Below, one piece after another: positions 870-20,882 of a stretch of DNA of 64,000 nt. The DNA lies in sequence record PQ303785.1. One strand, 5' to 3'. Position 1 is the stretch's first letter. The number at the start of each line of letters is the position of its first letter. Source of the stretch: Escherichia phage LYE-01. The notes beneath the pieces were generated by a model. The model did no database searches and was not told the origin of the DNA. It saw only the letters and a list, made by a program, of their open reading frames with translations. The translations under genes and the position numbers were made by a program.

Positions 870-920
870 TATAATTTGACTCACGGACGAGTCACTATCT
901 ATTAACTAAGTGGAAAATTT

Positions 921-2099: not shown

Positions 2100-2104
2100 G
2101 GAGT

Positions 2105-2124
2105 GGGCCGCAAGGCCCATTTTA
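2105..2124 (+). terminator. Stem-loop GGGCC-GCAA-GGCCC followed by AT-rich run, just after nrdB stop
   Basis: Perfect 5-bp GC stem with GNRA tetraloop read directly from sequence. Confidence 0.45.
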
Positions 2125-2126
2125 TT

Positions 2127-3714
<1,588 letters not shown>

Positions 3715-3717
3715 GCT

Positions 3718-3771
3718 GTTTACAAGTCCCTCGTGTTGTGTTACAGTAGTCTTACTGACATAACATGAGGA
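3718..3771 (+). promoter_or_regulatory. Early-promoter-like element (GTTTAC -35, degenerate -10 TACAGT) plus conserved leader ending in GAGGA; copy 1 of a duplicated 54-bp cassette
   Basis: About 50 of 54 nt identical to 19537..19590; sits immediately upstream of alc. Confidence 0.45.
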
Positions 3772-3778
3772 CTTTATG

Positions 3779-4282: not shown

Positions 4283-4626
4283 GTAATTTTACAGCTGGAT
4301 TGCTATTACTTGTAATAGCATTTGGCGGAACATCTATTATTTTAAAAAATAAGGTAGAAAGATTAGAAACATCGGTTACTGAAATTACAAAAACGGCCAA
4401 TGAAAACGCTTTAGCATTAGATAATTTGCGAATTCAGTATAATTATATTGATGCGATGAATAATAAAAATCGTGAGGCAATTGCTGCTATTGAGCGTGAA
4501 AATGAAAAACTGCGCAAAGATGCAAAGAAGGCGGATGTGGTGGCTCATAAGCCAGGATTGGTTGAAAAACAAATCAACAACTCCTTCAACAAGTTCGCAG
4601 AAGACATCCAGGACCTTTCTAAATGA
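4273..4626 (+). CDS. Small membrane protein (N-terminal TM helix plus coiled-coil), 117 aa
   Basis: Track ORF; hydrophobic stretch AGLLLLVIAFGGTSIIL; start overlaps alc stop. Confidence 0.55.
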   Translation: MHVSNFTAGLLLLVIAFGGTSIILKNKVERLETSVTEITKTANENALALDNLRIQYNYIDAMNNKNREAIAAIERENEKLRKDAKKADVVAHKPGLVEKQINNSFNKFAEDIQDLSK

Positions 4627-4922
4627 TTAAACTATCGGCAGTAATATTATCTATTGGTCTTCTAGTTGGTTGTTCGACAAAGCCTCTAGAAGTAAAGAAA
4701 GAAACAGTTCATCCTAATTGGCCTGTGCAAATAAAGTCATATGATGAAGCTAAACTATCTTGGCAAGTTAAAGTCATTGATGGTAAAGCTTGGGTCGGTA
4801 TGCCATTTGAAGATTCCCAGGAATTTCGTATTTGGCTTAATGATGTAAAACGATATGTACATGACCAAAAAACTATGATATGTTATTATCGTCAAGAGCT
4901 AAAAGAGGATAAATGTAAATGA
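4623..4922 (+). CDS. Predicted lipoprotein, 99 aa
   Basis: Track ORF; signal peptide with lipobox LVGC (MIKLSAVILSIGLLVGCS); ATGA overlap with upstream ORF. Confidence 0.55.
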   Translation: MIKLSAVILSIGLLVGCSTKPLEVKKETVHPNWPVQIKSYDEAKLSWQVKVIDGKAWVGMPFEDSQEFRIWLNDVKRYVHDQKTMICYYRQELKEDKCK

Positions 4923-5145
4923 TTTCATGGCATCAATTTGAACATCTCAAAGGATTGATTTATGAATCTGAGATGGCTGCAATGATTTATGGACGCCAGA
5001 TTCAACGATTAGAATCTTTGCCTCCAACTAATGATGTTTTATTAGCTCAATCACGTGCTAATCTCAAAAATGAATACCAAAATAAGTGGGGTAAAGCATC
5101 TAAAGACCTGCATGATTATATTCAATCATTAGTTGAGAAAAATAA

Positions 5146-5149
<4 letters not shown>
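4919..5149 (+). CDS. Hypothetical protein, 76 aa
   Basis: Track ORF; translationally coupled (ATGA overlap) in alc-pseT accessory cluster. Confidence 0.5.
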
Positions 5150-6370
<1,221 letters not shown>

Positions 6371-6371
<1 letters not shown>

Positions 6372-6568
6372 TGGCTTTGCATCATGAAACTTGGGCTATT
6401 GTTATTGTAAATAGTGGTTTAGTTGGTACTAGTAATGGGCAATTTTGTGTTTTCACTAGTGAAATCAGAGCTTGGGAGGAATGCCTTAAATTAAGAGAAA
6501 AGAATCCTGATGTTGAACTAACAGTAAAGAAAACTAAACTGCCTTTACCATGGAAAACTTATGAATAA
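6371..6568 (+). CDS. Hypothetical early protein, 65 aa
   Basis: Track ORF, coupled to pseT stop. Confidence 0.45.
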
Positions 6569-6761
6569 CATAGAAAAGATTTATCGTCTTTGTGATAAAA
6601 TTGAAAAAGAAAAGAAATATCTATTTTGTCTATGGCCTATTGTTGACGGAAGAGTAGGCTTAGATGTTATTGATTATGAAACAGAAGACAAAGTAGATGG
6701 TTCAATTTTTGATAACGCTTTGGATGTTATTGATTGGCTTGAAGAAAATTATGTGAGGTAA
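6561..6761 (+). CDS. Hypothetical early protein, 66 aa
   Basis: Track ORF. Confidence 0.45.
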   Translation: MNNIEKIYRLCDKIEKEKKYLFCLWPIVDGRVGLDVIDYETEDKVDGSIFDNALDVIDWLEENYVR

Positions 6762-6763
6762 AT

Positions 6764-7039
6764 ATGTTTCCGACTTACTCTAAAATCGTAGAAGTAGTGT
6801 TTAGCCAAATTATCGCTAATAATATGTTTGAAAAACTTGATAACGCAGCTGAGCTTCGAATTCATGCTCAAGTGACTCATGTATTGAACACTTTGCTTCC
6901 AGACCAGGTGGATTCTATCGCCATTACACTGTATCCAGGTTCTGCGCATATCATTGTTGTATTTGGTCTTGATGCTGAGTTAGTTATCAAGGGCGATATT
7001 CGCTTTGAATCGCAGACATCAGAATTCAAAGCAATTTAA
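6764..7039 (+). CDS. Hypothetical early protein, 91 aa
   Basis: Track ORF. Confidence 0.45.
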   Translation: MFPTYSKIVEVVFSQIIANNMFEKLDNAAELRIHAQVTHVLNTLLPDQVDSIAITLYPGSAHIIVVFGLDAELVIKGDIRFESQTSEFKAI

Positions 7040-7042
7040 CAG

Positions 7043-7072
7043 TTTACTTTACGGTAGAGTTGTGATATTATA
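7043..7072 (+). promoter_or_regulatory. Candidate T4-type early promoter (GTTTAC, about 17-18 nt spacer, TGATATTAT -10) with 7-bp inverted repeat GGTAGAG/CTCTACC bracketing the -10
   Basis: Read from sequence; lies in the 62-bp gap before the 7102 ORF. Confidence 0.4.
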
Positions 7073-7101
7073 GCTCTACCAAAACAAATGAGGAAATTGA
7101 A

Positions 7102-7629
7102 ATGAGCGAATGGTTTGAAGAAGATAAGGTTTATCGCTTTAAAGCTGGATATAAAGATATTTTTAATGAAACTTGCGGAGCTAATAAACGAATTGCACAG
7201 TTTATTGGGGAAAATTCATTTAAAGTAAAAATAGATCCTGCGAAAAATGTTATTAGCATTAAACGTGAAATTGATGATTGCTGGTATAAAGCTGTTGATG
7301 TAATGGGTGAATCCTATAAAGTTAGTCCGTTATTTTCAATTGCTTATATGTTAGAATATTCTTTTTTCGAAGAAGTTCAAAAAGATGATTCTGTCAGTAA
7401 ATTTGAAATTAAAGCTGATAAAGAAATTAAATGGAAAGTAGTAGGTATTACTGGTTGTATGTTCTATATCTATGCTCAAACTGATACGAAGGAAGAAGCT
7501 AAAAAGAAAGCTCTAGAATATCTTGAAGAGTATGAAGAAGGTCCGGTAATGATTACTCAAGATGCCGAATTAGTTTCTGTCAAATTAGTTAAAAACGTTG
7601 AAAGTAAGGAGCTTGGATCAACATGCTAA
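7102..7629 (+). CDS. Hypothetical protein, 175 aa
   Basis: Track ORF with upstream GAGGA RBS. Confidence 0.55.
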   Translation: MSEWFEEDKVYRFKAGYKDIFNETCGANKRIAQFIGENSFKVKIDPAKNVISIKREIDDCWYKAVDVMGESYKVSPLFSIAYMLEYSFFEEVQKDDSVSKFEIKADKEIKWKVVGITGCMFYIYAQTDTKEEAKKKALEYLEEYEEGPVMITQDAELVSVKLVKNVESKELGSTC

Positions 7630-7859
7630 GCGAAAAACCAATTACTGTTAAAGAATTCCAAGAAAAAGTTAAACTATTTGCTCAGGAATTGGTAAATAAG
7701 GTTTCTGAACGATTTCCTGAAACATCGGTTCGTGTTATTACCGAAACTCCTCGTTCAGTATTAGTAATTGTGAATCCAGGTGATGGTGACCAAATAACAC
7801 ATCTCAAATTGGATTTTGATGGATTAGTTGAAGCACAAAGGGTGTATGGCGTACTATGA
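7623..7859 (+). CDS. Hypothetical protein, 78 aa
   Basis: Track ORF. Confidence 0.45.
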   Translation: MLSEKPITVKEFQEKVKLFAQELVNKVSERFPETSVRVITETPRSVLVIVNPGDGDQITHLKLDFDGLVEAQRVYGVL

Positions 7860-8194
7860 TGAATTTAACTGATATAATTGATAATTGTCTTGAAAATGAT
7901 ACTGGCGATCATAGAGCGCTTGATTCTGAAACAGCACAGTTCATTAGAATAACTTTAATGAATGATACTCTAGTGAATAGTATTCATCCTTCTGTGTATG
8001 ATGCTATTATTGTGACGAAGTATCCAGTTGAGCTTCACAAAAAGATGGCTGGTGCAATTTTTATTGATAAGAAAAACCGCTTTAAAGATGGGCAGAATAT
8101 AATTAGTTCTGTTATTAAAAGTATAACTAAACTTCGTCACGAAATTTATCGTGTTGAAACTGCTAAATCTGCTTATCTGGTGATTATGAAATGA
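7856..8194 (+). CDS. Hypothetical protein, 112 aa
   Basis: Track ORF. Confidence 0.45.
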   Translation: MMNLTDIIDNCLENDTGDHRALDSETAQFIRITLMNDTLVNSIHPSVYDAIIVTKYPVELHKKMAGAIFIDKKNRFKDGQNIISSVIKSITKLRHEIYRVETAKSAYLVIMK

Positions 8195-8772
8195 AAGCGA
8201 GTACAGTACTTCAAATTGCATATTTAGTATCACAAGAATCAAAATGTTGCTCCTGGAAGGTAGGAGCAGTAATTGAAAAGAATGGACGTATTATTTCTAC
8301 TGGGTATAATGGTTCGCCTGCAGGTGGTGTGAATTGCTGTGATTATGCTGCTGAGCAAGGTTGGTTGCTGAATAAGCCTAAACATACTATCATTCAAGGT
8401 CATAAGCCTGAATGCGTATCATTTGGTTCAACTGATCGTTTTGTCTTAGCGAAAGAACACCGCAGCGCTCATTCTGAATGGTCGTCTAAAAATGAAATTC
8501 ATGCTGAACTAAATGCAATTTTGTTTGCTGCACGAAATGGTTCTTCAATTGAAGGTGCTACTATGTATGTAACACTTTCTCCTTGCCCAGATTGTGCAAA
8601 AGCGATAGCTCAATCTGGAATTAAAAAGCTGGTTTATTGTGAAACATACGATAAAAATAAACCTGGCTGGGATGATATTCTGCGAAATGCGGGTATTGAA
8701 GTGTTTAATGTTCCTAAGAAAAACTTGAATAAGTTAAACTGGGAAAATATCAACGAATTCTGTGGTGAATAA
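8191..8772 (+). CDS. cd: dCMP deaminase, 193 aa
   Basis: Track ORF; zinc-binding deaminase motifs HAE (HAELNAI) and PCxxC (SPCPDCAKAI); length equals T4 Cd. Confidence 0.9.
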   Translation: MKASTVLQIAYLVSQESKCCSWKVGAVIEKNGRIISTGYNGSPAGGVNCCDYAAEQGWLLNKPKHTIIQGHKPECVSFGSTDRFVLAKEHRSAHSEWSSKNEIHAELNAILFAARNGSSIEGATMYVTLSPCPDCAKAIAQSGIKKLVYCETYDKNKPGWDDILRNAGIEVFNVPKKNLNKLNWENINEFCGE

Positions 8773-9008
8773 TGAAATTTCGTTTGGTACAACTCACAGC
8801 AATTAGTTCTTATTCCAACGAGAACATTTCATTTGCTGTAGAGTATAAGAAATATTTTTTCTCTAAATGGAAACAGTATTATAAGTCAGACTGGGTTTGT
8901 ATTGATAGACCGTATAGTTGGAAATCTGATTTAGAAAAATGCCAAAAACTGCTTTCCACTCTTAAAGAACGTGGAACAACTCATATTAAAACTGTGATAG
9001 GTAAATAA
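8772..9008 (+). CDS. Hypothetical protein, 78 aa
   Basis: Track ORF. Confidence 0.45.
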   Translation: MKFRLVQLTAISSYSNENISFAVEYKKYFFSKWKQYYKSDWVCIDRPYSWKSDLEKCQKLLSTLKERGTTHIKTVIGK

Positions 9009-9317
9009 ATGAAACTGACGACTGAACAGAAAGTAGCAATTCGTGAAATTTTGAAAACTAAATTGTCCATGGGTATTTCAAACGTAGTTTTTGAAAAGTC
9101 TGATGGTACTATTCGTACTATGAAAGGTACTCGTGATGCAGACTTTATGCCAACCATGCAAACCGGTAAATTGACTGAATCAACTCGGAAAGAATCTACT
9201 GATATGATTCCAGTATTTGATGTTGAGCTTGGTGCATGGCGAGGTTTTTCTATTGACAAATTGATTTCTGTTAATGGTATGAAAGTTGAGCATTTGCTTC
9301 AATTTATTGGTAAATAA
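9009..9317 (+). CDS. Hypothetical protein, 102 aa
   Basis: Track ORF. Confidence 0.5.
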   Translation: MKLTTEQKVAIREILKTKLSMGISNVVFEKSDGTIRTMKGTRDADFMPTMQTGKLTESTRKESTDMIPVFDVELGAWRGFSIDKLISVNGMKVEHLLQFIGK

Positions 9318-9318
9318 A

Positions 9319-9343
9319 TGCTTTAAGAATTATTTGTTATTAT
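9319..9343 (+). promoter_or_regulatory. Candidate MotA-dependent middle promoter (MotA box TGCTTTA, about 12 nt, TATTAT) upstream of gene 31
   Basis: Motif match read from sequence; about 30 nt upstream of the gene 31 RBS. Confidence 0.35.
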
Positions 9344-9373
9344 TAATTCATCTGTTAACAAAAAGGAAAAACG

Positions 9374-9709
9374 ATGTCTGAAATACAACAGCTACCAATT
9401 CGTGCTGTCGGTGAATATGTTATTTTAGTTTCTGAACCTGCGCAAGCCGGTGATGAAGAAGTTACAGAATCAGGACTTATTATCGGTAAACGTGTTCAAG
9501 GTGAAGTTCCTGAACTGTGTGTAATTCACTCTGTCGGTCCTGATGTTCCTGAAGGTTTTTGTGAAGTTGGTGATTTGACTTCTCTTCCAGTTGGTCAAAT
9601 TCGAAACGTTCCGCATCCTTTTGTAGCTCTGGGTCTTAAGCAGCCAAAAGAAATTAAACAAAAATTCGTTACCTGTCACTATAAAGCTATTCCATGTCTT
9701 TATAAGTGA
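9374..9709 (+). CDS. 31: Co-chaperonin for head assembly (GroES analogue), 111 aa
   Basis: Track ORF; sequence and length match recalled T4 gp31. Confidence 0.85.
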
Positions 9710-9856
9710 TATAAATAATAATATGAATTGGGTGTCGGAATAATAAGTTAACCGAACAATTCTATGTGGTAGTCTACAACTGAGAGATCTGTCGAAAGAA
9801 GATGAAATTCAGAAGAACGTGACTACCGAGTTTTAATCTCTAACGAGAATTTTTAA

Positions 9857-10105
9857 ATGATTAAACAATTACAACACGCTCTTGAACTGCAACGAAACGC
9901 ATGGAATAATGGTCACGAAAACTATGGCGCATCTATTGATGTTGAAGCCGAAGCTCTTGAAATCCTGCGTTATTTCAAACATCTGAATCCTGCTCAAACT
10001 GCATTAGCTGCTGAGCTTCAGGAAAAAGATGAACTTAAATATGCTAAGCCTCTGGCTTCTGCTGCACGAAAAGCAGTTCGTCACTTTGTGGTAACATTGA
10101 AGTAA
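9857..10105 (+). CDS. rIII: rIII lysis-inhibition accessory protein, 82 aa
   Basis: Track ORF; length and position after gene 31 as in T4. Confidence 0.75.
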   Translation: MIKQLQHALELQRNAWNNGHENYGASIDVEAEALEILRYFKHLNPAQTALAAELQEKDELKYAKPLASAARKAVRHFVVTLK

Positions 10106-10350
10106 TTTATTGGAGATTCACTGCCTTAGTGTGAGCTAAAATCGAGGAGCCGTCGAACTGTCTGATTAATGATTTGCGAATCATTATAGTTTTAAGACCC
10201 CGGCAGTTTTACGGTGTACCTCTTGAATGTGAATGATGACGGGTTTATGGTTATCCTGGTCGTTAAATATCCAAAAACCTATGTTCCCCTTGAGGGCTTG
10301 CGCAGGCAATGCCAATAAGTCCTGCATTTTCATTTAAAAGAGAATTTATA

Positions 10351-10527
10351 ATGGCAAAACAAGCTAAAGCAAAGAAAGCAGTTGAAAAGAAAGTTGGTGA
10401 TTCTAAACGCGCTGGTTACAAGCGTGGGTCGAACTCTCGTATCAATCAAACTGTTGAGAAGATCATGCGCCGAGCACGTGCGGTTCTTCGAGATGATGCT
10501 TCTCGTTTTGGTAAGCAGAAAGCATAA
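10351..10527 (+). CDS. Small highly basic protein, 58 aa
   Basis: Track ORF 10309..10527; first in-frame ATG at 10351 gives MAKQAKAKKAVEKK...; Lys/Arg-rich; followed by a strong terminator. Confidence 0.5.
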   Translation: MAKQAKAKKAVEKKVGDSKRAGYKRGSNSRINQTVEKIMRRARAVLRDDASRFGKQKA

Positions 10528-10532
10528 GTTGA

Positions 10533-10556
10533 GGACTCCTTCGGGAGTCCTTTTTT
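10533..10556 (+). terminator. Intrinsic terminator: GGACTCC-TTCG-GGAGTCC followed by TTTTTT
   Basis: 7-bp stem, UUCG tetraloop and U-run read directly. Confidence 0.7.
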
Positions 10557-10580
10557 ATTTTCCAAAGATTGCACAAAGTT

Positions 10581-10610
10581 GTTTACAGTATAGTTCCTTT
10601 GTGATAGTAT
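10581..10610 (+). promoter_or_regulatory. Candidate early promoter (GTTTAC -35, TAGTAT-like -10)
   Basis: Read from sequence, upstream of the 10638 ORF. Confidence 0.35.
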
Positions 10611-10637
10611 TATCTTACACAAACAAAGGAGAATAAA

Positions 10638-10970
10638 ATGAAAACGATTAATCTGAACGCTGCGGTTAAAGCTAAATGTTTCAATGGTGAATATAACGAA
10701 ACTATGTGGTTCTTAATGGCAGTTGAAGGTGATATTATTGAAGTAGAAACAACAGAAGGTATGGGAACAGATTTCACCTTTACAATTCAAGTTCATAATT
10801 TCTTTACTGGTTGGATTTATGAATTGAATACAGTAATCGTTGGAAAAATTGAACAAAATGAATTAGGTGAATGGTATTATGTTACAGCTCGCCAACGTGC
10901 AGAACGCTTAATTGAGAAGATGAAAAAAGTTGGCAAACTTGACATGCAGCACTGGAAAGTAGTAAAATAA
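10638..10970 (+). CDS. Hypothetical protein, 110 aa
   Basis: Track ORF with AAGGAG RBS. Confidence 0.55.
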   Translation: MKTINLNAAVKAKCFNGEYNETMWFLMAVEGDIIEVETTEGMGTDFTFTIQVHNFFTGWIYELNTVIVGKIEQNELGEWYYVTARQRAERLIEKMKKVGKLDMQHWKVVK

Positions 10971-10972
10971 TT

Positions 10973-11011
10973 GTTTACTTTGGTACAGGATATGATATTA
11001 TATACCTGTAC
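10973..11011 (+). promoter_or_regulatory. Candidate early promoter (GTTTAC, TGATATTAT) bracketed by 8-bp inverted repeat GGTACAGG/CCTGTACC
   Basis: Same architecture as the 7043 element; read from sequence. Confidence 0.4.
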
Positions 11012-11038
11012 CGCAATTAAACATCTTGGAGAATAAAA

Positions 11039-11404
11039 ATGAACTACATCAACTTTGAACGTAAATATGTTTCTAACGGTATTGCAGGTTCTATTGATAC
11101 TATTTGCCTTTGGAAACATCAAAATGGATCAGTATGCGAAATTGAACAGTATATGACTCCTAACTACGTTTATATGCGATTTGAAAATGGCATCACGGTT
11201 TCAATCACGAAAGAAGGTTCTTCTTTTAAAATCGCATTAGATGATGATTTCCGTCAACGCGATTTAGGTACTCATCCTTGCTGGAATGGCGTCAATCGTA
11301 AGCTTCTGGTTAAAACTTGGATTCGTCATATTCTGAGTAACAGAGCTAAACCTGAGCATCTTGAAGCGATCTTTGATGTAGTTCTTAATGAATTTGATAT
11401 TTAA
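11039..11404 (+). CDS. Hypothetical protein, 121 aa
   Basis: Track ORF with GGAG RBS. Confidence 0.55.
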   Translation: MNYINFERKYVSNGIAGSIDTICLWKHQNGSVCEIEQYMTPNYVYMRFENGITVSITKEGSSFKIALDDDFRQRDLGTHPCWNGVNRKLLVKTWIRHILSNRAKPEHLEAIFDVVLNEFDI

Positions 11405-11412
11405 AATAAAAT

Positions 11413-11428
11413 AGGGGCTTCGGCCCCT
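11413..11428 (+). terminator. Hairpin AGGGGC-TTCG-GCCCCT
   Basis: UUCG tetraloop stem-loop after stop of preceding ORF; identical hairpin recurs at 31832 and, inverted, at 41388. Confidence 0.55.
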
Positions 11429-11444
11429 TACTGAGGAAAATACT

Positions 11445-11732
11445 ATGTTTATGACTACTTATTTTGATACTCGTAAAAATTTTTGCGAAGTAGTTTTCTC
11501 TAAGGCGCCTAAAGACCTTCCTGCTCATTTGCAGCCTACCAGTGAATCGATTAAAAACTACGTTAATGTAGTATGTCCTTTAGAGTTCCGTACTGTAAAT
11601 GGGCGTGATACTCTAGCTATCGCTAAACTCAATCGTGAAATTGACATTGACCCTTCAATTGCGCGTGAAATTAACATTTCTGATATTGACGGCGGTAATG
11701 TTAAATCGCATGGTTTTCAGATGAGGTTCTAA
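11445..11732 (+). CDS. Hypothetical protein, 95 aa
   Basis: Track ORF with GAGGA RBS. Confidence 0.5.
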   Translation: MFMTTYFDTRKNFCEVVFSKAPKDLPAHLQPTSESIKNYVNVVCPLEFRTVNGRDTLAIAKLNREIDIDPSIAREINISDIDGGNVKSHGFQMRF

Positions 11733-11929
11733 TGAAATTCTTTTTGGGTCAAACTGTTGAATTAAAGGGAGTCGGTATACCTGGATTAATTTCTAAGGTT
11801 CTACCTCCATTTAAATGGAGTGGTATTCAAATAAAAGAGGCTTATATTGTTTCCTGGGTAGATGGAAATGAAGACCTTCGTATGGGTGATGAATTATCTC
11901 CTATCTATGGATTAAAGGAATTAGTATGA
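11732..11929 (+). CDS. Hypothetical protein, 65 aa
   Basis: Track ORF. Confidence 0.4.
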   Translation: MKFFLGQTVELKGVGIPGLISKVLPPFKWSGIQIKEAYIVSWVDGNEDLRMGDELSPIYGLKELV

Positions 11930-12132
11930 ATATAATTAATAAGATTTTTGGAATTCAGTACATTAAGGTCACATATAAAGTAACGTATAAAGGTCCGTAT
12001 ACCGATGAACATGAAGAACCACAAGTTAAGTCTATTATATTAGAAAAGGACCCTAACTGGCCAGTTGAATTTCGTCTTCCTTGCTATGGTCATTGGGCTG
12101 ATGTTGAAATTATAAGTATTGAAAATGTCTGA
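11926..12132 (+). CDS. Hypothetical protein, 68 aa
   Basis: Track ORF. Confidence 0.4.
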   Translation: MNIINKIFGIQYIKVTYKVTYKGPYTDEHEEPQVKSIILEKDPNWPVEFRLPCYGHWADVEIISIENV

Positions 12133-12583
12133 GCTAGAAATAAGAAGCAATTTTAGATGGCCATCATGTGCATTAAGCAATTTCGCCCAATGGCCTTTCG
12201 TTATGGATGGTATCCAATTTGGAGGTCTCGAAGGATTCCTTCAAGGATGTAAGGTGAAAAATGCTGAACAACAACGTCGTATATTTGGGTTATCCGGGCT
12301 TGCCGCCCAACAAGCTGGAAGGTCTTATGCTAGAGCTCAAGACCGTGGGACCCTCTTCTGGCTTGGAGTTCCGTTTTCAAGATACTCTCCAGCGTGGAAA
12401 GAATTATACACAAATGCATACTTTGAAGCAGCGATCCAAAACAAGGGCTTTCGTGATGCATTACAAGCCTCGAAAGGAAAAGTTTTGAAGCACAGCATGG
12501 CTAGTGGTCTAACAAAAGATGATACAATACTAACCGAAGCTGAATTTATTGATGTGTTAAACCTATTAAGAGACTCTCTATGA
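12119..12583 (+). CDS. NADAR (YbiA-like) domain protein, 154 aa
   Basis: Track ORF; motif LSNFAQWP...DG...EGFLQGCK resembles the YbiA/NADAR signature FSNFAAWP...DG...EHYFQAQK; locally elevated GC. Confidence 0.6.
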   Translation: MKMSELEIRSNFRWPSCALSNFAQWPFVMDGIQFGGLEGFLQGCKVKNAEQQRRIFGLSGLAAQQAGRSYARAQDRGTLFWLGVPFSRYSPAWKELYTNAYFEAAIQNKGFRDALQASKGKVLKHSMASGLTKDDTILTEAEFIDVLNLLRDSL

Positions 12584-13419
12584 AGCCTACTATTTTAACT
12601 GATATTGATGGAGTATGTTTAAGCTGGCAATCAGGTCTTCCTTATTTTGCTCAAAAATATAATCTTCCATTAGAACATATTTTAAAAATGATCCAAGATG
12701 AGAAATTTATTTCTCCAGGTAAACTCTTTAATTGTGACGAAGAACTTGGCGTCAAGTTAATTGAAAAATACAATCGTTCAGATTTTATTCGTTACTTGTC
12801 TCCGTATAAAGATGCCCTGTGTGTAATTAACAAATTAAAGGAAGATTATAATTTTGTAGCTGTTACAGCATTGGGCGATTCTATTGACGCTCTGTTGAAT
12901 CGTCAATTTAATTTGAATGCTCTTTTTCCTGGTGCCTTCTCAGAAGTAATGATGTGTGGTCATGATTCTTCAAAAGAAGAGCTGTTCAAAAAGGCAAAAG
13001 AGAAATATAACGTAATTTGTTATATTGACGATCTCGCTCATCACTGCGATCATGCAAGTGAAATATTAAATGTTCCTGTTTATTGGATGGCTCGAGGGGA
13101 GCGTGATAATATTCCAAAAACTGCTCAGCGAGTTTATACATGGAATGATGTAGAAAATAAGCTTTTTTCGCCGAAGGAAAATAAAGAAAGTTTTGATAGT
13201 GAAAAAGCTATAAAAGATTTAATTGAGAAGATGGTTAAAAACGATTCTTTTCCTTGGAACACTACCTGGAGAACGCCTGGATTAAATCCTTATAATCATC
13301 TATATCATCCATATCAGACACATCCGTTTCAGACATGGAACTATATTAAACCTGGTGGCATAGAGTATTTGTATAATAGACCTACTAGTGGTGATAATAT
13401 TTTTCAAGGAGCATTCTAA
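12580..13419 (+). CDS. HAD-superfamily phosphatase-like protein (possible 5' nucleotidase), 279 aa
   Basis: Track ORF; N-terminal motif ILTDIDGV (HAD motif I) and later YIDDLAHH. Confidence 0.5.
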   Translation: MKPTILTDIDGVCLSWQSGLPYFAQKYNLPLEHILKMIQDEKFISPGKLFNCDEELGVKLIEKYNRSDFIRYLSPYKDALCVINKLKEDYNFVAVTALGDSIDALLNRQFNLNALFPGAFSEVMMCGHDSSKEELFKKAKEKYNVICYIDDLAHHCDHASEILNVPVYWMARGERDNIPKTAQRVYTWNDVENKLFSPKENKESFDSEKAIKDLIEKMVKNDSFPWNTTWRTPGLNPYNHLYHPYQTHPFQTWNYIKPGGIEYLYNRPTSGDNIFQGAF

Positions 13420-13688
13420 TGTTTGTTGTTCATACTATTTATGAAAATGAAGGTAATACTACACGTGATTACGGTCACGTAAATCAATTTTTTAGATGCA
13501 ATCCAGAATTCCGTGCTCAAAAAGACGAACGAATTTTTAAAAAATGTGTAGAACAAGGTTTCATTTACGTCAAGCACTGGATGCAAGGAAATAAAGTTAG
13601 AACTACATATCATAGGTCTTTGCCTGAGCTTAATGATGAATTGATTTATAATAGAGCTGTAAACCAAACCTTGAAGGATGAGCAATGA
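13419..13688 (+). CDS. Hypothetical protein, 89 aa
   Basis: Track ORF; mirror ORF on minus strand judged spurious. Confidence 0.45.
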   Translation: MFVVHTIYENEGNTTRDYGHVNQFFRCNPEFRAQKDERIFKKCVEQGFIYVKHWMQGNKVRTTYHRSLPELNDELIYNRAVNQTLKDEQ

Positions 13689-15145
13689 TTCTTAAAATTC
13701 TGAATGAAATAGCATCTATTGGATCAACTAAGCAGAAGCAAGCAATTCTTGAAAAGAATAAAGATAATGAATTGCTTAAACGAGTATATCGTCTGACTTA
13801 TTCTCGTGGGTTACAGTATTATATCAAGAAATGGCCTAAGCCTGGTATTGCTACCCAGAGTTTTGGAATGCTGACTATTACCGATATGCTTGACTTCATT
13901 GAATTCACGTTAGCTACTCGGAAATTGACTGGAAATGCAGCAATTGAGGAATTAACTGGATATATCACTGATGGTAAAAAGGATGATGTTGAAGTTTTGC
14001 GTCGGGTTATGATGCGAGACCTTGAATGCGGTGCTTCAGTATCTATTGCAAACAAAGTTTGGCCAGGTTTAATTCCTGAACAACCTCAAATGCTGGCAAG
14101 TTCTTATGATGAAAAAGGCATTAGTAAGAATATCAAGTTTCCAGCCTTTGCGCAGTTAAAAGCAGATGGAGCTCGGTGTTTTGCTGAAGTCCGAGGCGAT
14201 GAATTAGATGATGTTCGTCTTTTATCGCGAGCTGGTAATGAATATCTAGGATTAGATCTTCTTAAGGAAGAGTTAATCAAAATGACTGCTGAAGCCCGCC
14301 AGATTCATCCAGAAGGTGTGTTAATTGATGGCGAATTGGTATACCATGAGCAAGTTGAAAAGGAACCAGAAGGCCTAGATTTTCTTTTTGATGCTCCTGA
14401 AATCAGTAAAGCTAAAGAGTTTGCCGAAGTAGCTGAATCTCGTACTGCTTCTAATGGAATCGCTAATAAATCTTTAAAGGGAACTATTTCAGAAAAAGAA
14501 GCCCAATGTATGAAGTTTCAGGTCTGGGATTATGTTCCGTTGGTAGAAATATACGGTCTTCCGGCGTTTCGTTTAAAATATGATGTACGTTTTTCTAAAC
14601 TAGAACAAATGACATCAGGATATGATAAAGTAATTTTAATTGAAAACCAAGTAGTAAATAACCTAGATGAAGCTAAGGTAATTTATAAAAAATATATTGA
14701 CCAAGGTCTTGAAGGTATTATTCTCAAAAATACCGATGGATTGTGGGAAAATGCTCGTTCAAAAAATCTCTATAAATTTAAAGAAGTAATTGATGTTGAT
14801 TTAAAAATTGTAGGAATTTATCCTCACCGTAAAGACCCTACTAAAGCGGGTGGATTTATTCTTGAATCAGAGTGTGGAAAAATTAAAGTAAATGCTGGTT
14901 CAGGCTTAAAAGATAAAGCCGGTGTAAAATCACATGAACTTGACCGTACTCGCATTATGGAAAACCAAAATTATTATATTGGAAAAATTCTAGAGTGCGA
15001 ATGCAATGGTTGGTTAAAATCTGATGGTCGCACTGATTACGTTAAATTATTTCTTCCAATTGCGATTCGTTTACGTGAAGATAAAACTAAAGCTAATACA
15101 TTCGAGGATGTATTTGGTGATTTTCATGAGGTAACTGGTTTATGA
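13685..15145 (+). CDS. 30: ATP-dependent DNA ligase, 486 aa
   Basis: Track ORF; adenylation motif KADG (AQLKADGARC); sequence matches recalled T4 DNA ligase. Confidence 0.9.
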   Translation: MILKILNEIASIGSTKQKQAILEKNKDNELLKRVYRLTYSRGLQYYIKKWPKPGIATQSFGMLTITDMLDFIEFTLATRKLTGNAAIEELTGYITDGKKDDVEVLRRVMMRDLECGASVSIANKVWPGLIPEQPQMLASSYDEKGISKNIKFPAFAQLKADGARCFAEVRGDELDDVRLLSRAGNEYLGLDLLKEELIKMTAEARQIHPEGVLIDGELVYHEQVEKEPEGLDFLFDAPEISKAKEFAEVAESRTASNGIANKSLKGTISEKEAQCMKFQVWDYVPLVEIYGLPAFRLKYDVRFSKLEQMTSGYDKVILIENQVVNNLDEAKVIYKKYIDQGLEGIILKNTDGLWENARSKNLYKFKEVIDVDLKIVGIYPHRKDPTKAGGFILESECGKIKVNAGSGLKDKAGVKSHELDRTRIMENQNYYIGKILECECNGWLKSDGRTDYVKLFLPIAIRLREDKTKANTFEDVFGDFHEVTGL

Positions 15146-15330
15146 AAGCTTACTTAGAAACAATTGTCGTGGCTCAAAAAGAAGGTGGAGATGTTTCTAC
15201 TTCGGTATCACAAGTCATTCTCGAATTTGTAGATGCATATGCTTATAATAAATTTACAGAAACATTTGATGCCTACGAAAAAGGTCCAAAGTTTGAAATA
15301 TATCGTACTCTCTTACCACTAGATTATTAA
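15142..15330 (+). CDS. Hypothetical protein, 62 aa
   Basis: Track ORF overlapping ligase stop. Confidence 0.4.
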   Translation: MKAYLETIVVAQKEGGDVSTSVSQVILEFVDAYAYNKFTETFDAYEKGPKFEIYRTLLPLDY

Positions 15331-15345
15331 AGGCCTTCGGGCCTT
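15330..15345 (+). terminator. Hairpin AAGGCC-TTCG-GGCCTT
   Basis: UUCG tetraloop hairpin between the 62-aa ORF and alt. Confidence 0.5.
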
Positions 15346-15351
15346 TAATTT

Positions 15352-15359
15352 TATAAATA
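15352..15359 (+). promoter_or_regulatory. T4 late promoter TATAAATA upstream of alt
   Basis: Exact TATAAATA about 25 nt upstream of ATG, followed by GAGAGGA RBS. Confidence 0.55.
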
Positions 15360-15382
15360 GAATAAACACTAGAGAGGATATG

Positions 15383-17476
15383 ATGGAACTCATTACAGAA
15401 TTATTTGACGAAGATACTACTCTTCCGATTACAAACTTAAATCCAAAGAAGAAAATACCACAAATTTTTTCAGTTCATGTTGATGATGCAATTGAACAAC
15501 CAGGCTTTCGTTTATGTACCTATACATCTGGAGGTGATACTAATCGCGATTTAAAAATGGGCGATAAAATGATGCATATTGTTCCTTTTACATTAACTGC
15601 TAAAGGTTCAATTGCTAAATTAAAAGGTCTCGGTCCAAGTCCAATTAATTACATCAATTCAGTTTTTACTGTTGCAATGCAGACGATGCGTCAGTATAAA
15701 ATTGATGCCTGTATGCTTCGTATTCTTAAGTCTAAAACTGCTGGTCAAGCTCGACAAATTCAAGTTATTGCTGATAGACTTATCCGTAGTCGTTCAGGTG
15801 GCAGATACGTCCTTCTTAAGGAACTCTGGGATTACGATAAAAAGTACGCATATATTCTTATACATCGCAAAAATGTATCACTAGAAGACATTCCAGGAGT
15901 TCCGGAAATTAGTACCGAGCTTTTTACTAAAGTCGAATCGAAGGTCGGCGATGTTTATATCAATAAAGATACTGGAGCTCAAGTAACTAAAAATGAAGCA
16001 ATTGCAGCATCTATTGCGCAAGAAAATGATAAACGTTCTGACCAAGCTGTAATCGTTAAAGTTAAAATTTCCCGTAGAGCAATTGCGCAAAGTCAATCAT
16101 TAGAATCTTCTAGATTTGAAAGCGAATTATTCCAGAAGTATGAATCTACCGCAGCCAATTTTAATAAGCCTGCTACTGCTCCTTTAATTCCAGAAGCAGA
16201 AGAAATGAAGCTTGGAATTAATTCATTAGCTTCTAAAACTAAGGCAGCAAAAATCATTGCCGAAGGAACCGCAGATGAACTTCACTATGACTATAAATTC
16301 TTTTCAAAAAGTGAGGTTAATGAAGTTTCTGAAAAAATTAAAGATGTAATTCTTAATGCGATTAAAAATGAACCAACTACTTCAATAAAATGTTTAGAGA
16401 AATACGCAGCAGCTGTTAATCAATTCTTTGAAGAATATAAAGATAATTGGCTTGATAAACATAATAAAACTCGTAAAGGACAGCCAGATGAAGTCTGGGA
16501 AGAAATAACTAAAAATTCCTGGAACGCAGCAAAAACTAAATTCCTCAAACGAATGATTTATAGCTTTTCTGGAATTGGTGCAGGTCCAATGATTGATATT
16601 ACCATTGCCCGTGATGGTTCTAAATACACTCCATCGCAAAAGCGCGGAATTAGAGAGTATTGCGGATCAGGATATACTGACATCAATAATCTTCTTTTAG
16701 GCCGCTACAATCCAGAACGATATGATGTAATGAGTGAAAAAGAAATTGAATCTGCGATAAATAATTTAGATTCAGCTTTTGAAAATGGTGACCGTATACC
16801 AGAAGGCATTACAGTTTATCGTGCTCAAAGTATGACTGCTCCTATATATGAAGCACTAGTTAAAAATAAAGTGTTCTATTTCAGAAATTTTGTATCTACT
16901 TCTTTAACTCCTATCATTTTTGGACGTTTTGGAATTACACATGCTGGTATCGGTCTTTTAGAACCAGAAGCTCGCAATGAATTAACAGTTGATAAAAATG
17001 AAGAAGGAATAACTATTAATCCAAACGAAATAAGAGCGTATAAAGAAAATCCTGAATACGTTAAAGTTCAAATAGGATGGGCTATTGATGGAGCTCATAA
17101 AGTTAATGTTGTATATCCAGGAAGTCTCGGAATAGCAACAGAAGCTGAAGTTATTCTACCACGCGGATTGATGGTCAAAGTTAATAAAATAACTGATGCT
17201 TCTAATAATGATGGAACAACATCTAATAATACAAAACTCATTCAAGCTGAAGTTATGACTACGGAAGAACTCACCGAATCGGTAATTTATGACGGTGACC
17301 GTCTAATGGAAACTGGTGAATTGGTTGCAATGACAGATGATATTGAAATAGAAGACAGAGTTGACTTTGCATCATTTGTTTCATCAAATGTTAAACAGAA
17401 AGCAGAATCATCTCTCGGAATTATTGCGTCTTGCATAGATATTACAAACATGCCTTACAAGTTCGTTCAAGGATAA
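15383..17476 (+). CDS. alt: Alt-type ADP-ribosyltransferase (packaged internal head protein), about 697 aa
   Basis: Track ORF 15380..17476 (MM start); N-terminus MELITELFDE; R-S-E ART motifs (YRAQ, FVSTSL, EAEVILPRG). Confidence 0.8.
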   Translation: MELITELFDEDTTLPITNLNPKKKIPQIFSVHVDDAIEQPGFRLCTYTSGGDTNRDLKMGDKMMHIVPFTLTAKGSIAKLKGLGPSPINYINSVFTVAMQTMRQYKIDACMLRILKSKTAGQARQIQVIADRLIRSRSGGRYVLLKELWDYDKKYAYILIHRKNVSLEDIPGVPEISTELFTKVESKVGDVYINKDTGAQVTKNEAIAASIAQENDKRSDQAVIVKVKISRRAIAQSQSLESSRFESELFQKYESTAANFNKPATAPLIPEAEEMKLGINSLASKTKAAKIIAEGTADELHYDYKFFSKSEVNEVSEKIKDVILNAIKNEPTTSIKCLEKYAAAVNQFFEEYKDNWLDKHNKTRKGQPDEVWEEITKNSWNAAKTKFLKRMIYSFSGIGAGPMIDITIARDGSKYTPSQKRGIREYCGSGYTDINNLLLGRYNPERYDVMSEKEIESAINNLDSAFENGDRIPEGITVYRAQSMTAPIYEALVKNKVFYFRNFVSTSLTPIIFGRFGITHAGIGLLEPEARNELTVDKNEEGITINPNEIRAYKENPEYVKVQIGWAIDGAHKVNVVYPGSLGIATEAEVILPRGLMVKVNKITDASNNDGTTSNNTKLIQAEVMTTEELTESVIYDGDRLMETGELVAMTDDIEIEDRVDFASFVSSNVKQKAESSLGIIASCIDITNMPYKFVQG

Positions 17477-17479
17477 ATC

Positions 17480-19537
17480 ATGGAACTTATTACAGAATTA
17501 TTTGACGGCGCTTCGGCGCCGGTTGTTAACTTAAATCCTAAGCATAAAATACCTCAAATTTTTGCTATTCAAGCAGGCGAAGAAAGCGTGCTTCCTGGAT
17601 TTAGATTTTGTACATACACCTCTGGCGGTGATACAAATAAAAACGTTAAGCCAGGCGATAAAATGATGCATATCGTAATGATAGGTGTCAATGAGAAACT
17701 ATCATTAGTTAAACTTAGAAACTTGGGTGGAAATCCAATTGGTGTCATTAATGCGGTTTTTGATACTGCTCTTCAGACAATGAAACAATACAAAATTGAC
17801 GCATGCTTATTCCGCGTACTAAAGAGTAAAACAAATGGTGCAGCTCGTCAAATGCAAGTTATTGCCGACCGTTTAGTACGTACTAAAGGAGCAGGTCGAT
17901 ATGTTCTTTTAAAGGAAATCTGGGATTACGATAAAAAGTACGCATATATTATGGTTTACCGTAAAAATGCTAATTTAGAAGACATTCCAGGTGTACCTCC
18001 TATTTCAACTGAGTTATTCACAAAAGTTGAATCAAAGGTTGGTGATGTTTATGTAGATGTTAAAACAGGTAATGCTGTTCCTAAAGCTGTTGCTGTTGCT
18101 GCTTCTATTGCTTTAGAAAATGATAAGCGCACGGATCAAGCTGTTATTCAGAAAACTAAAATTAGTCGTCGGTTAGCAGCACAAGCTCAATATTCTACTG
18201 TCGATGCTTCACTTCAGGGTGATAGCTTCGCTGCTAAGAAATATCAAGAGTTTGAATCTAAAGTTCCGGTATATAAAGCAGAAGGACCAATGAACTCTGG
18301 CGTTATTCAGGTTGGTTCAAACTTCAGCAAAGGAGCTATCGGTGGTATGAGAAGTGCTTCCCGTTTTAAATCTAGTGATTATGAATTAGAAAGCTTCCGA
18401 AATCATATTGCATTGGCTCATGCGCGTTTACGTGATCCATCTATCAAGTTACAGAGCGATATATCATATCAAGGTTCTCAAGAATATTTAAAGAATAAAG
18501 AATTTTTTGATTATAAAACTGATAAAATTTTAAGTGATCTTGCTGACATTAATATTTCTAATAGCTTTGATGTTATTAAGAAAATTGTCAATGATTTAGT
18601 TAAAGGTTCTAAAGCCACACCAGATGAAAAGGTAGCTATTGTTCAATTTGTCATGAATGGCGTTTATAAATTGATTAATGAGTCTGCTTCTCAAGCGTAT
18701 GAATATGCAAGTACTGAAGTAACTCCAAAAGGATTAACTCAGGCTGAGTCTGATGTAATTGAAGATTATTGTGCAGATTCATATGTTGAAATGAACTCGT
18801 TCCTTTTAGGTAAACCGGATTCTACTCGTGAAGAATACATGGAACGAGCTATTAAACACATCGAGACAATGGATTCTGCCTTTGCCAAAGGATCAGTTCT
18901 TCCTCCAGGAACTACACTTTACCGTGGACAAGAAGTTACCTTTAAAACTTTACGTCATAATATTGAAAATAAAATGTTCTACTTCAAGAACTTCGTATCC
19001 ACATCGCTTAAACCAAATATCTTCGGTGAGTATGGTAAAAACTATATGGCTCTAGATGATTCCGGCGCAGTATTTTCTGGTGAAGGAGAAGGTTCAGTTG
19101 ACGCAGAAGATTTGATGCATATGGGCAGTCACTCTGCTTATGCGAATGAAGATGCTGAAACTAGCGTGGGTATGGTAATTAAAGGAGCTGAGCGAATCAA
19201 AGTTATCGTTCCAGGACATTTATCAGGATTTCCATCAGAAGCTGAAGTTATTTTACCGCGTGGAATTTTGCTGAAGATTAATAAAGTGAGTACGTACATG
19301 ATGAAAGAAACTGCTTATAATAAGTATCTAATCGAAGGCACAATCGTTCCTCCTTCTGAACAATTAGAAGAATCGGTATATGATGGCGACCATCTAATGG
19401 AAACTGGTGAAGTTCGTCCAATGGCTGGATTTAATCAATTCCTTGTAGAAGAATCAAAAGAAGAGGAAAACGAAGTTTCTCAAATCTTGGCTTCTTTGGT
19501 TAACATCAACGGAATGTCTAAAAAGTTCAAGATGTAG
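17480..19537 (+). CDS. Second Alt-like ADP-ribosyltransferase paralog, 685 aa
   Basis: Track ORF; same N-terminal MELITELFD leader and conserved blocks (CTYTSGGDTN, KYAYI, GVP, ISTELFTKVESKVGDVY); ART motifs retained (YRGQ, FVSTSL, EAEVILPRG); central region diverged. Confidence 0.75.
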   Translation: MELITELFDGASAPVVNLNPKHKIPQIFAIQAGEESVLPGFRFCTYTSGGDTNKNVKPGDKMMHIVMIGVNEKLSLVKLRNLGGNPIGVINAVFDTALQTMKQYKIDACLFRVLKSKTNGAARQMQVIADRLVRTKGAGRYVLLKEIWDYDKKYAYIMVYRKNANLEDIPGVPPISTELFTKVESKVGDVYVDVKTGNAVPKAVAVAASIALENDKRTDQAVIQKTKISRRLAAQAQYSTVDASLQGDSFAAKKYQEFESKVPVYKAEGPMNSGVIQVGSNFSKGAIGGMRSASRFKSSDYELESFRNHIALAHARLRDPSIKLQSDISYQGSQEYLKNKEFFDYKTDKILSDLADINISNSFDVIKKIVNDLVKGSKATPDEKVAIVQFVMNGVYKLINESASQAYEYASTEVTPKGLTQAESDVIEDYCADSYVEMNSFLLGKPDSTREEYMERAIKHIETMDSAFAKGSVLPPGTTLYRGQEVTFKTLRHNIENKMFYFKNFVSTSLKPNIFGEYGKNYMALDDSGAVFSGEGEGSVDAEDLMHMGSHSAYANEDAETSVGMVIKGAERIKVIVPGHLSGFPSEAEVILPRGILLKINKVSTYMMKETAYNKYLIEGTIVPPSEQLEESVYDGDHLMETGEVRPMAGFNQFLVEESKEEENEVSQILASLVNINGMSKKFKM

Positions 19538-19590
19538 TTTACAAGTCACTCGTGTTGTGTTATAATAATCTTACTGACATAACATGAGGA
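19537..19590 (+). promoter_or_regulatory. Early promoter (GTTTAC -35, 18-nt spacer, TGTTATAAT extended -10) plus conserved leader; copy 2 of duplicated cassette
   Basis: About 93 percent identical to 3718..3771; here the -10 is consensus TATAAT. Confidence 0.5.
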
Positions 19591-19597
19591 ACACAAA

Positions 19598-19888
19598 ATG
19601 AAATCTTCTTTGCGCTTTTTAGGTCAAGAACTCGTAGTTGAAGGCGTTATTCCTGCTGATAACGCTTTTAATGAAGCGGTTTACGACGAATTTATCAAAA
19701 TTTTTGGAACAGATAAAAAGTTCGGAATTTTTCCTTCTGAAAATTTTTCAAAGCCAGAACAGACTGAAAGCATTTTCCAAGGTGTAGTAACAGGTAAATT
19801 TGAGTCAGAAGCTCCGGTAAAAATTGAAGTTTATATTGAAGACAGTTTAGTTGCTTCAGTTGCTGCTTTTATTTCATTCCGTAAATAA
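19598..19888 (+). CDS. Hypothetical protein, 96 aa
   Basis: Track ORF; GAGGA RBS 7 nt upstream. Confidence 0.55.
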   Translation: MKSSLRFLGQELVVEGVIPADNAFNEAVYDEFIKIFGTDKKFGIFPSENFSKPEQTESIFQGVVTGKFESEAPVKIEVYIEDSLVASVAAFISFRK

Positions 19889-19892
19889 AAAT

Positions 19893-19914
19893 ATGGGGAC
19901 CTTTCGGTCCCCAT
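19893..19914. terminator. Bidirectional terminator hairpin ATGGGGACC-TTTC-GGTCCCCAT between convergent genes
   Basis: 9-bp stem read from sequence between plus-strand ORF end and gene 54 end. Confidence 0.6.
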
Positions 19915-19916
19915 TG

Positions 19917-20882
19917 TTATATTGCTCCTAATATTTTACTTTGCGAATTGACAATTCCTGTCATAGTATTAATGTTTGAAATGCTTCCTGCAGTTCCTCC
20001 TAATCTACTAAGTCGTGAAAGCGAATTAGATAGTCCAGTAACACCTCCACTATTTCCGAGAACGCTTTGAATACCGTTTATAGCAGCAGATTCAAGCCAT
20101 TCAAGAGCAGCTTGTCTATCAACCGCTCCAGCCTGCATGACTCTATACGCAAAAGTAACATCAAATGTAGTTATTTGGTTATCTCCATCGTATGATAACT
20201 CAGGAGCGCTCACTGACACTGGAATGCATCCAGTGAACATCACCGCAGTATGAGGCAATCCATTGCGAGCATGAAGATTAACTTGAATATCTGCTTCAAC
20301 ATCTTGTGGTAAAGCACGTAATCCAGTTACTGGGTCTTGAACAGCGTTAACCCAGTCTTGCATCGCACGATAATTACACGACTCTGAATCCATTCTAAAT
20401 GAAATAACCAAAGGGTCTAATTCTCTTCCGGTTATGCGAATATTAGGAGAATTATAGTTCCAGTCAGTTTCATAGGATAATCTATTCTCTGGCATTTTTA
20501 CGGAGTATATCATCAATCCAGATGAGTTATATGCCATGTTAAAGAAGTCAATTAAATATGTACCAACTGTAAATGAGCCTAATAAACTTTGAACTGTACG
20601 TTGACTCATGGCACCAATAAGATATTTACTAACCCCTGATTTTCTTATCAGTTTTTGTGTGCCAGCAGTAATTAGCGTAGTAATTCCCTGATTAATATCG
20701 CCTTGAGTTAATCCTAACCAATCTGAATTTAGGCCCAAGTTATTATAAGAAAAGTTGCTAATTGAACTTATCAACGAAGAGCTTTTAGTTGATGGAGTTG
20801 TCGCAAAAACGCAGCTAAACATATTATTACGTTGGAAATCTGCGTTTATTGCTTGATTATTAAATTCCTCTAAAGAATACAT
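19917..20882 (-). CDS. 54: Baseplate tail-tube initiator, 321 aa
   Basis: Track ORF; length and order 54-48-29-28-27-51 as in T4. Confidence 0.85.
   Translation of the reverse strand: MYSLEEFNNQAINADFQRNNMFSCVFATTPSTKSSSLISSISNFSYNNLGLNSDWLGLTQGDINQGITTLITAGTQKLIRKSGVSKYLIGAMSQRTVQSLLGSFTVGTYLIDFFNMAYNSSGLMIYSVKMPENRLSYETDWNYNSPNIRITGRELDPLVISFRMDSESCNYRAMQDWVNAVQDPVTGLRALPQDVEADIQVNLHARNGLPHTAVMFTGCIPVSVSAPELSYDGDNQITTFDVTFAYRVMQAGAVDRQAALEWLESAAINGIQSVLGNSGGVTGLSNSLSRLSRLGGTAGSISNINTMTGIVNSQSKILGAI

Follow-up and report, generated by a model that had tools for sequence, protein, structure and literature searches.

Escherichia phage LYE-01 (sequence record PQ303785.1) was analysed over a stretch of 64,000 nucleotides, here called the window, which in the region considered resembles Tequatrovirus (T4-like) phages at 97–99% identity, with Yersinia phage ZN18 as the top match. 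The element of interest is a promoter cassette in the 60-nt gap between the second of two alt genes and alt.-3, at positions 19537–19597. The upstream gene is a full-length paralogue of alt (17480–19537, + strand), whose TAG stop codon at 19535–19537 overlaps the G of the GTTTAC that opens the cassette. The downstream gene, alt.-3 (19598–19888, + strand), encodes a 96-residue protein of DUF5498 / phrog_1739 with no assigned function. A sister cassette precedes alc, the gene for an inhibitor of host transcription (3776–4282, + strand; the T4 annotation uses the second ATG, at 3779). At both sites an early-type promoter is nested in an RNA hairpin that reaches the Shine-Dalgarno (SD) sequence, and this hairpin probably ties translation of alt.-3 and alc to transcripts started at their own promoters.

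The alt.-3 promoter, called by consensus, has the early sigma-70 layout GTTTAC-N18-TATAAT, with a −35 element of the T4 early-promoter type at 19537–19542 and a −10 element, preceded by TG, at 19561–19566 (both + strand, as are all elements of the cassette). With TTTACA taken as the −35 element, it agrees with the sigma-70 consensus at 11 of 12 positions, has a 17-nt spacer and a TG-extended −10, and ranks second among the sigma-70 matches in the first 20 kb. Promoter geometry places the putative transcription start site (TSS) at 19573–19574, 7–8 nt past the −10 element. The spacer contains CTCGTGTTGTGT (19549–19560), and the 5' leader contains ACATAACATGAG (19577–19588), whose final 3 nt coincide with the start of the SD sequence GAGGA (19586–19590); the start ATG follows at 19598. 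A first-pass annotation of this DNA had proposed that the segment after GTTTAC pairs with the leader over about 12 bp including two G-U pairs, and every element lies where it had been placed: CTCGTGTTGTGT and ACATAACATGAG pair without interruption over 12 bp, of which two are G-U. The fold has a minimum free energy (MFE) of −19.6 kcal/mol (z = −3.07; 2 of 200 shuffles equal it), and the pair probability of the core stem is about 1.0 in a 410-nt context.

Two finer points of that proposal hold in part. The SD sequence was expected to be buried, and GAG is indeed taken into the alt.-3 stem, but the last two bases fall in an internal loop; along GAGGA, the unpaired probabilities on RNA reading through from upstream are 0, 0, 0, 0.63 and 0.66. 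Only at alc is the whole SD sequence enclosed. The −10 element was expected in the loop and does lie between the arms, in the apical part of the hairpin, but in the MFE structure it is held in weak A-U pairs of the upper stem rather than in a plain loop. No U tract follows either cassette, the stem being succeeded by GAACACAAAAUG at alt.-3 and UAUGAUGG at alc. A search of the whole window with Rfam 15 gave zero matches at the gathering threshold and, near the cassette, only sub-threshold chance hits, none relevant by E-value.

The first-pass annotation spoke of more than one such cassette, and there are two. A direct repeat of 54 nt, 93% identical between its copies and extending from about the −35 element to the SD sequence, lies at 3718–3771, in the gap between rnlA (gene 63) and alc, and 15.8 kb away at 19537–19590. 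The sister cassette (3718–3775, + strand) has its −35 element at 3718–3723, its −10 element TACAGT at 3742–3747 and its SD sequence at 3767–3771, and it is annotated as a "predicted early promoter" in phage fPS-90. Its core arms (5' arm 3730–3741, 3' arm 3758–3769) are extended by outer arms, AAGTCC (3724–3729) and GGACTT (3770–3775), which form a helix enclosing the entire SD sequence and bring the hairpin with its extensions to about 22 bp. Its MFE is −25.7 kcal/mol (z = −3.58; 1 of 200 shuffles equals it). About 500 phage records (Tequatrovirus) each contain two matching places, and no indel bounded by both copies of the repeat was seen.

Whether the hairpin DISCRIMINATE between transcript forms was judged from the ensemble free-energy cost of making positions −14 to +3 single-stranded, the own-promoter RNA being modelled as starting about 7 nt after the −10 element. 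Opening the ribosome-binding site (RBS) of alt.-3 costs 13.0–13.7 kcal/mol on read-through RNA and 2.5–4.3 kcal/mol on own-promoter RNA; for alc the values are 16.9–18.2 and 3.0–5.9 kcal/mol. These costs are robust to moving the TSS by ±3 nt and to downstream length. Among the 33 same-strand genes at window positions 1–20000, whose median read-through cost is 5.4 kcal/mol, alc ranks first and alt.-3 second. The same computation on experimentally proven T4 hairpins gives 15.5 kcal/mol for e, 15.6 for 49, 14.2 for I-TevI and 8.1 for soc, where the TSS used for 49 and I-TevI are guesses. The first-pass annotation had suggested this comparison of read-through and promoter-initiated leaders and had named too weak a folding energy as the outcome that would speak against it; because the predicted opening costs are comparable to those of the proven T4 hairpins, the energy is not too weak.

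The explanation best supported by computation and comparison, to which we give a probability of about 0.6, is that the nested-promoter hairpin ties translation of alt.-3 and alc to their own promoter. None of the computational tests that might have contradicted this reading did so. The spacer of a T4-type immediate-early (sigma-70) promoter would double as one arm of an RNA hairpin. On read-through RNA, which alone carries the 5' arm, the transcribed spacer would pair with the leader and the SD sequence to form a hairpin of 12–22 bp that blocks 30S binding. RNA from the own promoter would begin at about 19573 (about 3754 at alc) and, since it starts 3' of the 5' arm, would leave the RBS open. 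Translation of alt.-3 and alc would then be confined to the first minutes of infection despite continued transcription within longer RNAs. We infer promoter activity and the TSS, folding in vivo and the block to translation from these features.

The read-through RNA of alt.-3 would most plausibly be late alt mRNA. The T4 late-promoter consensus TATAAATA occurs as an exact match at 15352–15359 (+ strand), 21 nt 5' of the first alt gene (15380–17476, + strand), which encodes an Alt-like RNA polymerase ADP-ribosyltransferase. In T4, Alt is a protein packaged in the virion. A terminator scan of the + strand from this late promoter to 19893 found no terminator-like site of note, so late alt mRNA should traverse the cassette and alt.-3. 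The late consensus itself is absent within the cassette. For alc, the read-through RNA would come from transcripts of rnlA and the genes preceding it. The two full-length alt paralogues stand in tandem, 3 nt apart (15380–17476 and 17480–19537), where T4 has a single alt and, at the place of the second copy, the short remnants alt.-1 and alt.-2; the gene content of the alt region differs among phages.

Transcription of alt.-3 should end at a different kind of hairpin. Between alt.-3 and gene 54, which are convergent, ATGGGGACC..GGTCCCCAT (19893–19914) forms a G+C-rich hairpin of 9 bp that appears as terminator-like on both strands in the scan, and phage G28 annotates a terminator there. This hairpin, unlike that of the cassette, is the actual terminator of the alt.-3 unit. 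The cassette resembles an intrinsic terminator in being a stable intergenic RNA hairpin 3' of a gene, but an intrinsic terminator consisting of a G+C-rich hairpin and a U run is ruled out for it: no U tract follows its stem, and it is missing from the output of the terminator scan.

Comparison across genera shows that the pairing at alc is maintained while its sequence changes. The rnlA-alc gaps of 12 other genera were compared, and in 10 of them TTTACA is followed directly by an anti-SD arm of the TCTCC/TCCTC type that pairs through the SD sequence, with arms that differ in sequence (for example TCTCCATTTGGTT/AACCAAATGGAGA, TCCTCGTTTTGAT/ATCAAAACGAGGA and ACCTCTCATTTTT/AAAAATGAGAGGT). A plain MAFFT alignment of the alc gaps misregistered the 3' arms, and pairs were counted in a fixed register and, separately, on an arm-only alignment. 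Over nine arm pairs that differ from one another, the paired fraction of cells is 91.5%, compared with 36–53% in slid registers; 11 of 13 pairs are altered on both sides, and none of 500 shuffles matches this. An exchange between GGAGA and GAGGA in the SD sequence is accompanied by the exchange between TCTCC and TCCTC in the arm, and in the genera examined the 3' arm ends at the 3' end of the SD sequence or within 1–2 bases of it. IMG/VR scans anchored on the starts of alt.-3 and alc gave 3 loci each; within Tequatrovirus, three substitutions were seen in the core stem, all of which preserve pairing (C-G to U-G once, G-U to A-U twice). The two exceptions among the 12 are Mosigvirus and Acinetobacter phage 133. 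In phage 133 the alc upstream region (339–389) has a hairpin, GTCCTCA..TGAGGAC, that includes the SD sequence and is followed by TTTTTT and then the ATG; judged from its sequence, it resembles an intrinsic terminator in which the 3' arm doubles as the RBS of alc.

The same architecture recurs at other early promoters. Window positions 1–20000 contain five intergenic promoters of the early type on the + strand (3719, 7043, 10582, 10974 and 19538), and each has an inverted repeat with its 5' arm in the spacer between −35 and −10. The one before the 30.8 homologue (10582–10640, + strand) is unrelated in sequence yet has the same architecture: TCCTTTG (10595–10601) pairs with CAAAGGA (10624–10630), covering the SD sequence. 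Two others leave the SD sequence uncovered. In the promoter that matches T4 Pe133295 in position (7042–7104, + strand), the −10 element is bracketed by GGTAGAG (7053–7059) and CTCTACC (7074–7080), and in that before the 30.7 homologue (10974–11041, + strand) it is bracketed by GGTACAGG (10982–10989) and CCTGTACC (11005–11012). A misc_feature at 133300–133313 of the T4 record AF158101 reads [quoted passage not shown]. In the corresponding window promoter at 7043, GGTAGAG and CTCTACC surround a 14-nt loop that holds the −10 element, and the T4 feature is likewise 14 nt long; the inversion could be a real flip between the inverted repeats or an old sequencing artefact.

A pattern scan of AF158101 yielded 35 early-type promoters in T4. 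Their spacer-leader duplexes have a mean energy of −11.3 kcal/mol, compared with −6.9 kcal/mol in mismatched promoter/leader pairs, a mean that none of 5000 permutations reaches, and the pairing is individually significant at 16 of the 35. Two classes of hairpin can be told apart: one covers the SD sequence, the other brackets only the −10 element. Nine of the 35 promoters add more than 5 kcal/mol to the RBS-opening cost on read-through RNA; they include those of regB, denV, nrdC.8, ndd.4, 30.8, alc and alt.-3 and one just 5' of modB, and at promoters such as regB, denV, nrdC.8, ndd.4 and 30.8 the design recurs in unrelated sequences. At dmd, mobD.2, ipI, ipII, ipIII and 30.7 the −10 element is tightly bracketed with no added RBS-opening penalty. 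The dmd (20611) and mobD.2 (57989) cassettes are paralogous and differ by a compensatory change, GACAAGACTA/TAGTCTTGTC in place of GACAAGATTA/TAATCTTGTC.

These promoters also indicate the molecule on which selection acts. For 14 of the 16 significant T4 hairpins the sense RNA folds more stably than the antisense RNA (mean −19.0 vs −13.6 kcal/mol; Wilcoxon p = 1.5e-4), and the 16 contain 31 G-U pairs in the sense form and 6 in the antisense form. This bias suggests selection at the level of the sense read-through RNA and not of a DNA cruciform; the G-U bias disfavours a cruciform and an antisense RNA alike. A common protein-binding site is disfavoured as well, the inverted repeats of different early promoters being unrelated in sequence. 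The pairing, its energy, the conservation and covariation at alc, this sense-strand bias and the late promoter upstream of alt are established computationally. A chance inverted repeat in AT-rich intergenic DNA, to which one might point because neither 12-mer by itself shows enrichment in the window once mismatches are tolerated, is already refuted and has a negligible probability. It is ruled out by the fold z-scores of −3.1 and −3.6, by the covariation across genera, by the spacer-leader duplex (p = 0.003 against shuffled spacers) and by the 5000 permutations across promoters.

Several observations weigh against a hairpin whose function is to occlude the SD sequence. The alt.-3 homology to the alc copy stops at GAGGA, so that the core stem takes in only GAG and leaves the final two bases of the SD sequence in the small internal loop. 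The alignment behind the covariation took the predicted partner as its anchor and is biased toward structure. The alc promoter of Mosigvirus has its hairpin inside the spacer and shows no SD pairing, leaving the SD sequence free. Six other phages from five genera carry another promoter in front of alt.-3, with a short hairpin contained in the spacer (for instance GCAC-AAGGAA-GTGC), and spacer-SD pairing was not seen there; SD occlusion is thus not an ancestral requirement of alt.-3. Seven of the 16 significant T4 hairpins, and those of the window promoters at 7043 and 10974, carry no large RBS-opening penalty, and hairpins that bracket the −10 element without touching the SD sequence imply at least one other role for promoter-embedded hairpins. 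Finally, the upstream stop codon adjoins the −35 element, and a ribosome that terminates there might open the lower part of the stem.

This last point opens the way to translational coupling, in which the RBS stays closed until a ribosome terminating upstream melts the base of the stem, so that Alc and Alt.-3 are made in step with RnlA and Alt. Here and in most genera compared (for example tagTTTACATCTCC), the stop codon of the preceding gene touches or overlaps the −35 element, so that the anti-SD arm lies 9–14 nt past the stop. Ribosome footprints indicate that 9–14 nt after a stop codon is about the reach of a terminating ribosome. In the window, however, the core arm starts 14 nt past the first stop-codon base, which puts it at the edge of the expected footprint or slightly outside; so dense an arrangement may be mere genome compaction, and under coupling the nested promoter would be unnecessary. 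We consider coupling improbable.

The hairpins with little effect on the RBS bear on another explanation, which draws on the cassettes described as PeSLs. A PeSL consists of an intergenic early promoter, a stem-loop, an SD sequence and an ATG, and is repeated within a genome; such promoter/stem-loop cassettes were described in RB49 and phi1 and extended to the PST/T4 pair (PMC2839356, PMC4122927). Their stem-loops often overlap the −10 element or sit in the spacer, G-T pairs were noted, T-even early-promoter versions were mentioned, and the stem-loops were read as terminators or attenuators and as recombination sites (PMC2839356, PMC4122927). The cassette hairpins could likewise be insulators of this type that act on read-through transcription or RNA stability, whether by attenuating or terminating, by shielding the 3' end of the upstream mRNA or by offering an RNase III-type processing site, with their overlap of the SD sequence incidental. 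One PeSL stem-loop cut expression of a downstream lacZ about as much as a strong terminator (PMC2839356). The hairpins at 7053–7080 and 10982–11012 and seven of the 16 in T4 barely raise the RBS-opening cost, the alc hairpin reaches about 22 bp with its extensions, and the phage 133 alc hairpin with its run of six T is terminator-like. Yet neither cassette has a U tract or appears in the terminator scan, and insulation leaves unexplained both the 3' arm that ends at or near the 3' end of the SD sequence and the covariation between arm and SD. On balance, an insulator with incidental SD overlap appears unlikely.

The relation between the two copies raises the question of whether the alt.-3 hairpin is selected at all. 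The alt.-3 promoters of other genera are of another type, and the Tequatrovirus alt.-3 cassette is most simply, and judging from the sequences most likely, a copy of the alc cassette. That other type is a third kind of promoter, in which a small hairpin with an AAGGA-type loop lies wholly in the spacer (CCAC-AAGGAT-GTGG, GCAC-AAGGAA-GTGC) and the 3' arm is the GTG(G) immediately 5' of the −10 element; it was found in the alt.-3 upstream regions of other phages, at T4 promoters 2457, 50972 and 167085, and at Mosigvirus alc. The alt.-3 module might have been copied from alc through short homologies, its hairpin a passenger under no selection there and the repeat mainly a substrate for recombination. 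The repeat does span about the −35 element to the SD sequence, the outer stem that buries the whole SD sequence at alc is absent from alt.-3, the alt region varies between phages, and such shuffling has been proposed for PeSLs (PMC2839356, PMC4122927). A near-identical module of −10 element and leader, TACTATACAACTATCAACTAC..., is common to many T4 early promoters (27079, 53942, 55383, 70695, 146874, 163672 and 167085), so promoter/leader cassettes are repeated around the genome, which fits the shuffling idea. Against a mere passenger stand the two matching places in each of about 500 Tequatrovirus records and the alt.-3 arm substitutions, which keep the pairing; moreover, a copied hairpin still physically occludes the RBS, at 13.7 kcal/mol. 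An unselected hairpin at alt.-3 is accordingly given little credence.

Hairpins that sequester an RBS and hold a nested late or middle promoter are known at e, soc, 49, I-TevI, I-TevII, I-TevIII, segB and Aeh1 mobE (PMC3014915, PMC2988022). The first-pass annotation had likened the cassette to e and soc, and the likeness holds for an SD hairpin with a nested promoter and for similar energies, but the nested promoter here is early and the timing reversed. At T4 e, soc, 49 and I-TevI, as predicted for the cassette, long transcripts fold a hairpin over the SD sequence or the AUG, transcripts from the inner promoter lack the 5' arm and in those T4 cases are translated, and the phages belong to the same lineage. 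There, however, a late (gp55, TATAAATA) or a middle promoter is nested, and the hairpin keeps the gene from being translated too early, whereas the cassette has a sigma-70 early promoter, a 5' arm in the −35/−10 spacer and, as a predicted effect, translation from immediate-early transcripts only. Mosig et al. 1998 (Gene 223:143) or Miller et al. 2003 reportedly remark on hairpin-nested early promoters, and novelty would be lower if so. Neither alc nor alt.-3 is in the review lists (PMC3014915, PMC2988022), though key older T4 papers might hold an earlier remark, and hairpins at early promoters are unmentioned in Hinton 2010, Nolan et al. 2006 and the MotB paper.

Toward the PeSLs the relation is one of shared parts and a different account. 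Like them, the cassette has an intergenic early promoter, an overlapping stem-loop, and then SD sequence and ATG. Unlike what the PeSL accounts describe, its stem spans from spacer to SD sequence and varies in concert with the latter, and no U tract follows it. The PST/T4 PeSL stem-loops were placed just 5' of the promoter, and translation is not discussed in that paper (Comeau et al. 2014, PMC4122927), nor does the word "translation" occur in Arbiol et al. 2010 (PMC2839356). What we would rate as new is that the promoter-in-hairpin scheme of T4 would here use an early promoter and run with its timing reversed, inside cassettes already described as PeSLs.

The recurrence at other promoters points, tentatively, to a design rule of T4-like phages: many immediate-early spacers may encode an anti-leader or anti-SD arm, and a sizeable share of these genes may be translatable only from promoter-proximal transcripts, a generalisation we hold to be possible but somewhat doubtful. 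If true, it would supply a post-transcriptional reason for the abrupt stop in synthesis of many early proteins at the shut-off of early promoters, despite continued transcription from upstream middle or late promoters. The shut-off of early promoters is itself incompletely understood (Uzan & Miller 2010, PMC3014915). A promoter spacer, usually deemed poor in information, would be able to carry a second code at the level of RNA, and some PeSLs so far seen as terminators or recombination sites would gain a concrete function. For phage engineering and annotation, a gene moved without its cassette, or put behind another promoter with the cassette retained, would be silenced if the mechanism is correct. 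Nested late promoters in hairpins keep late proteins from being made early; nested early promoters would prevent the later synthesis of Alc, and possibly RegB, from read-through RNA, and T4-like phages would thus gate translation by the start of the transcript in both temporal directions.

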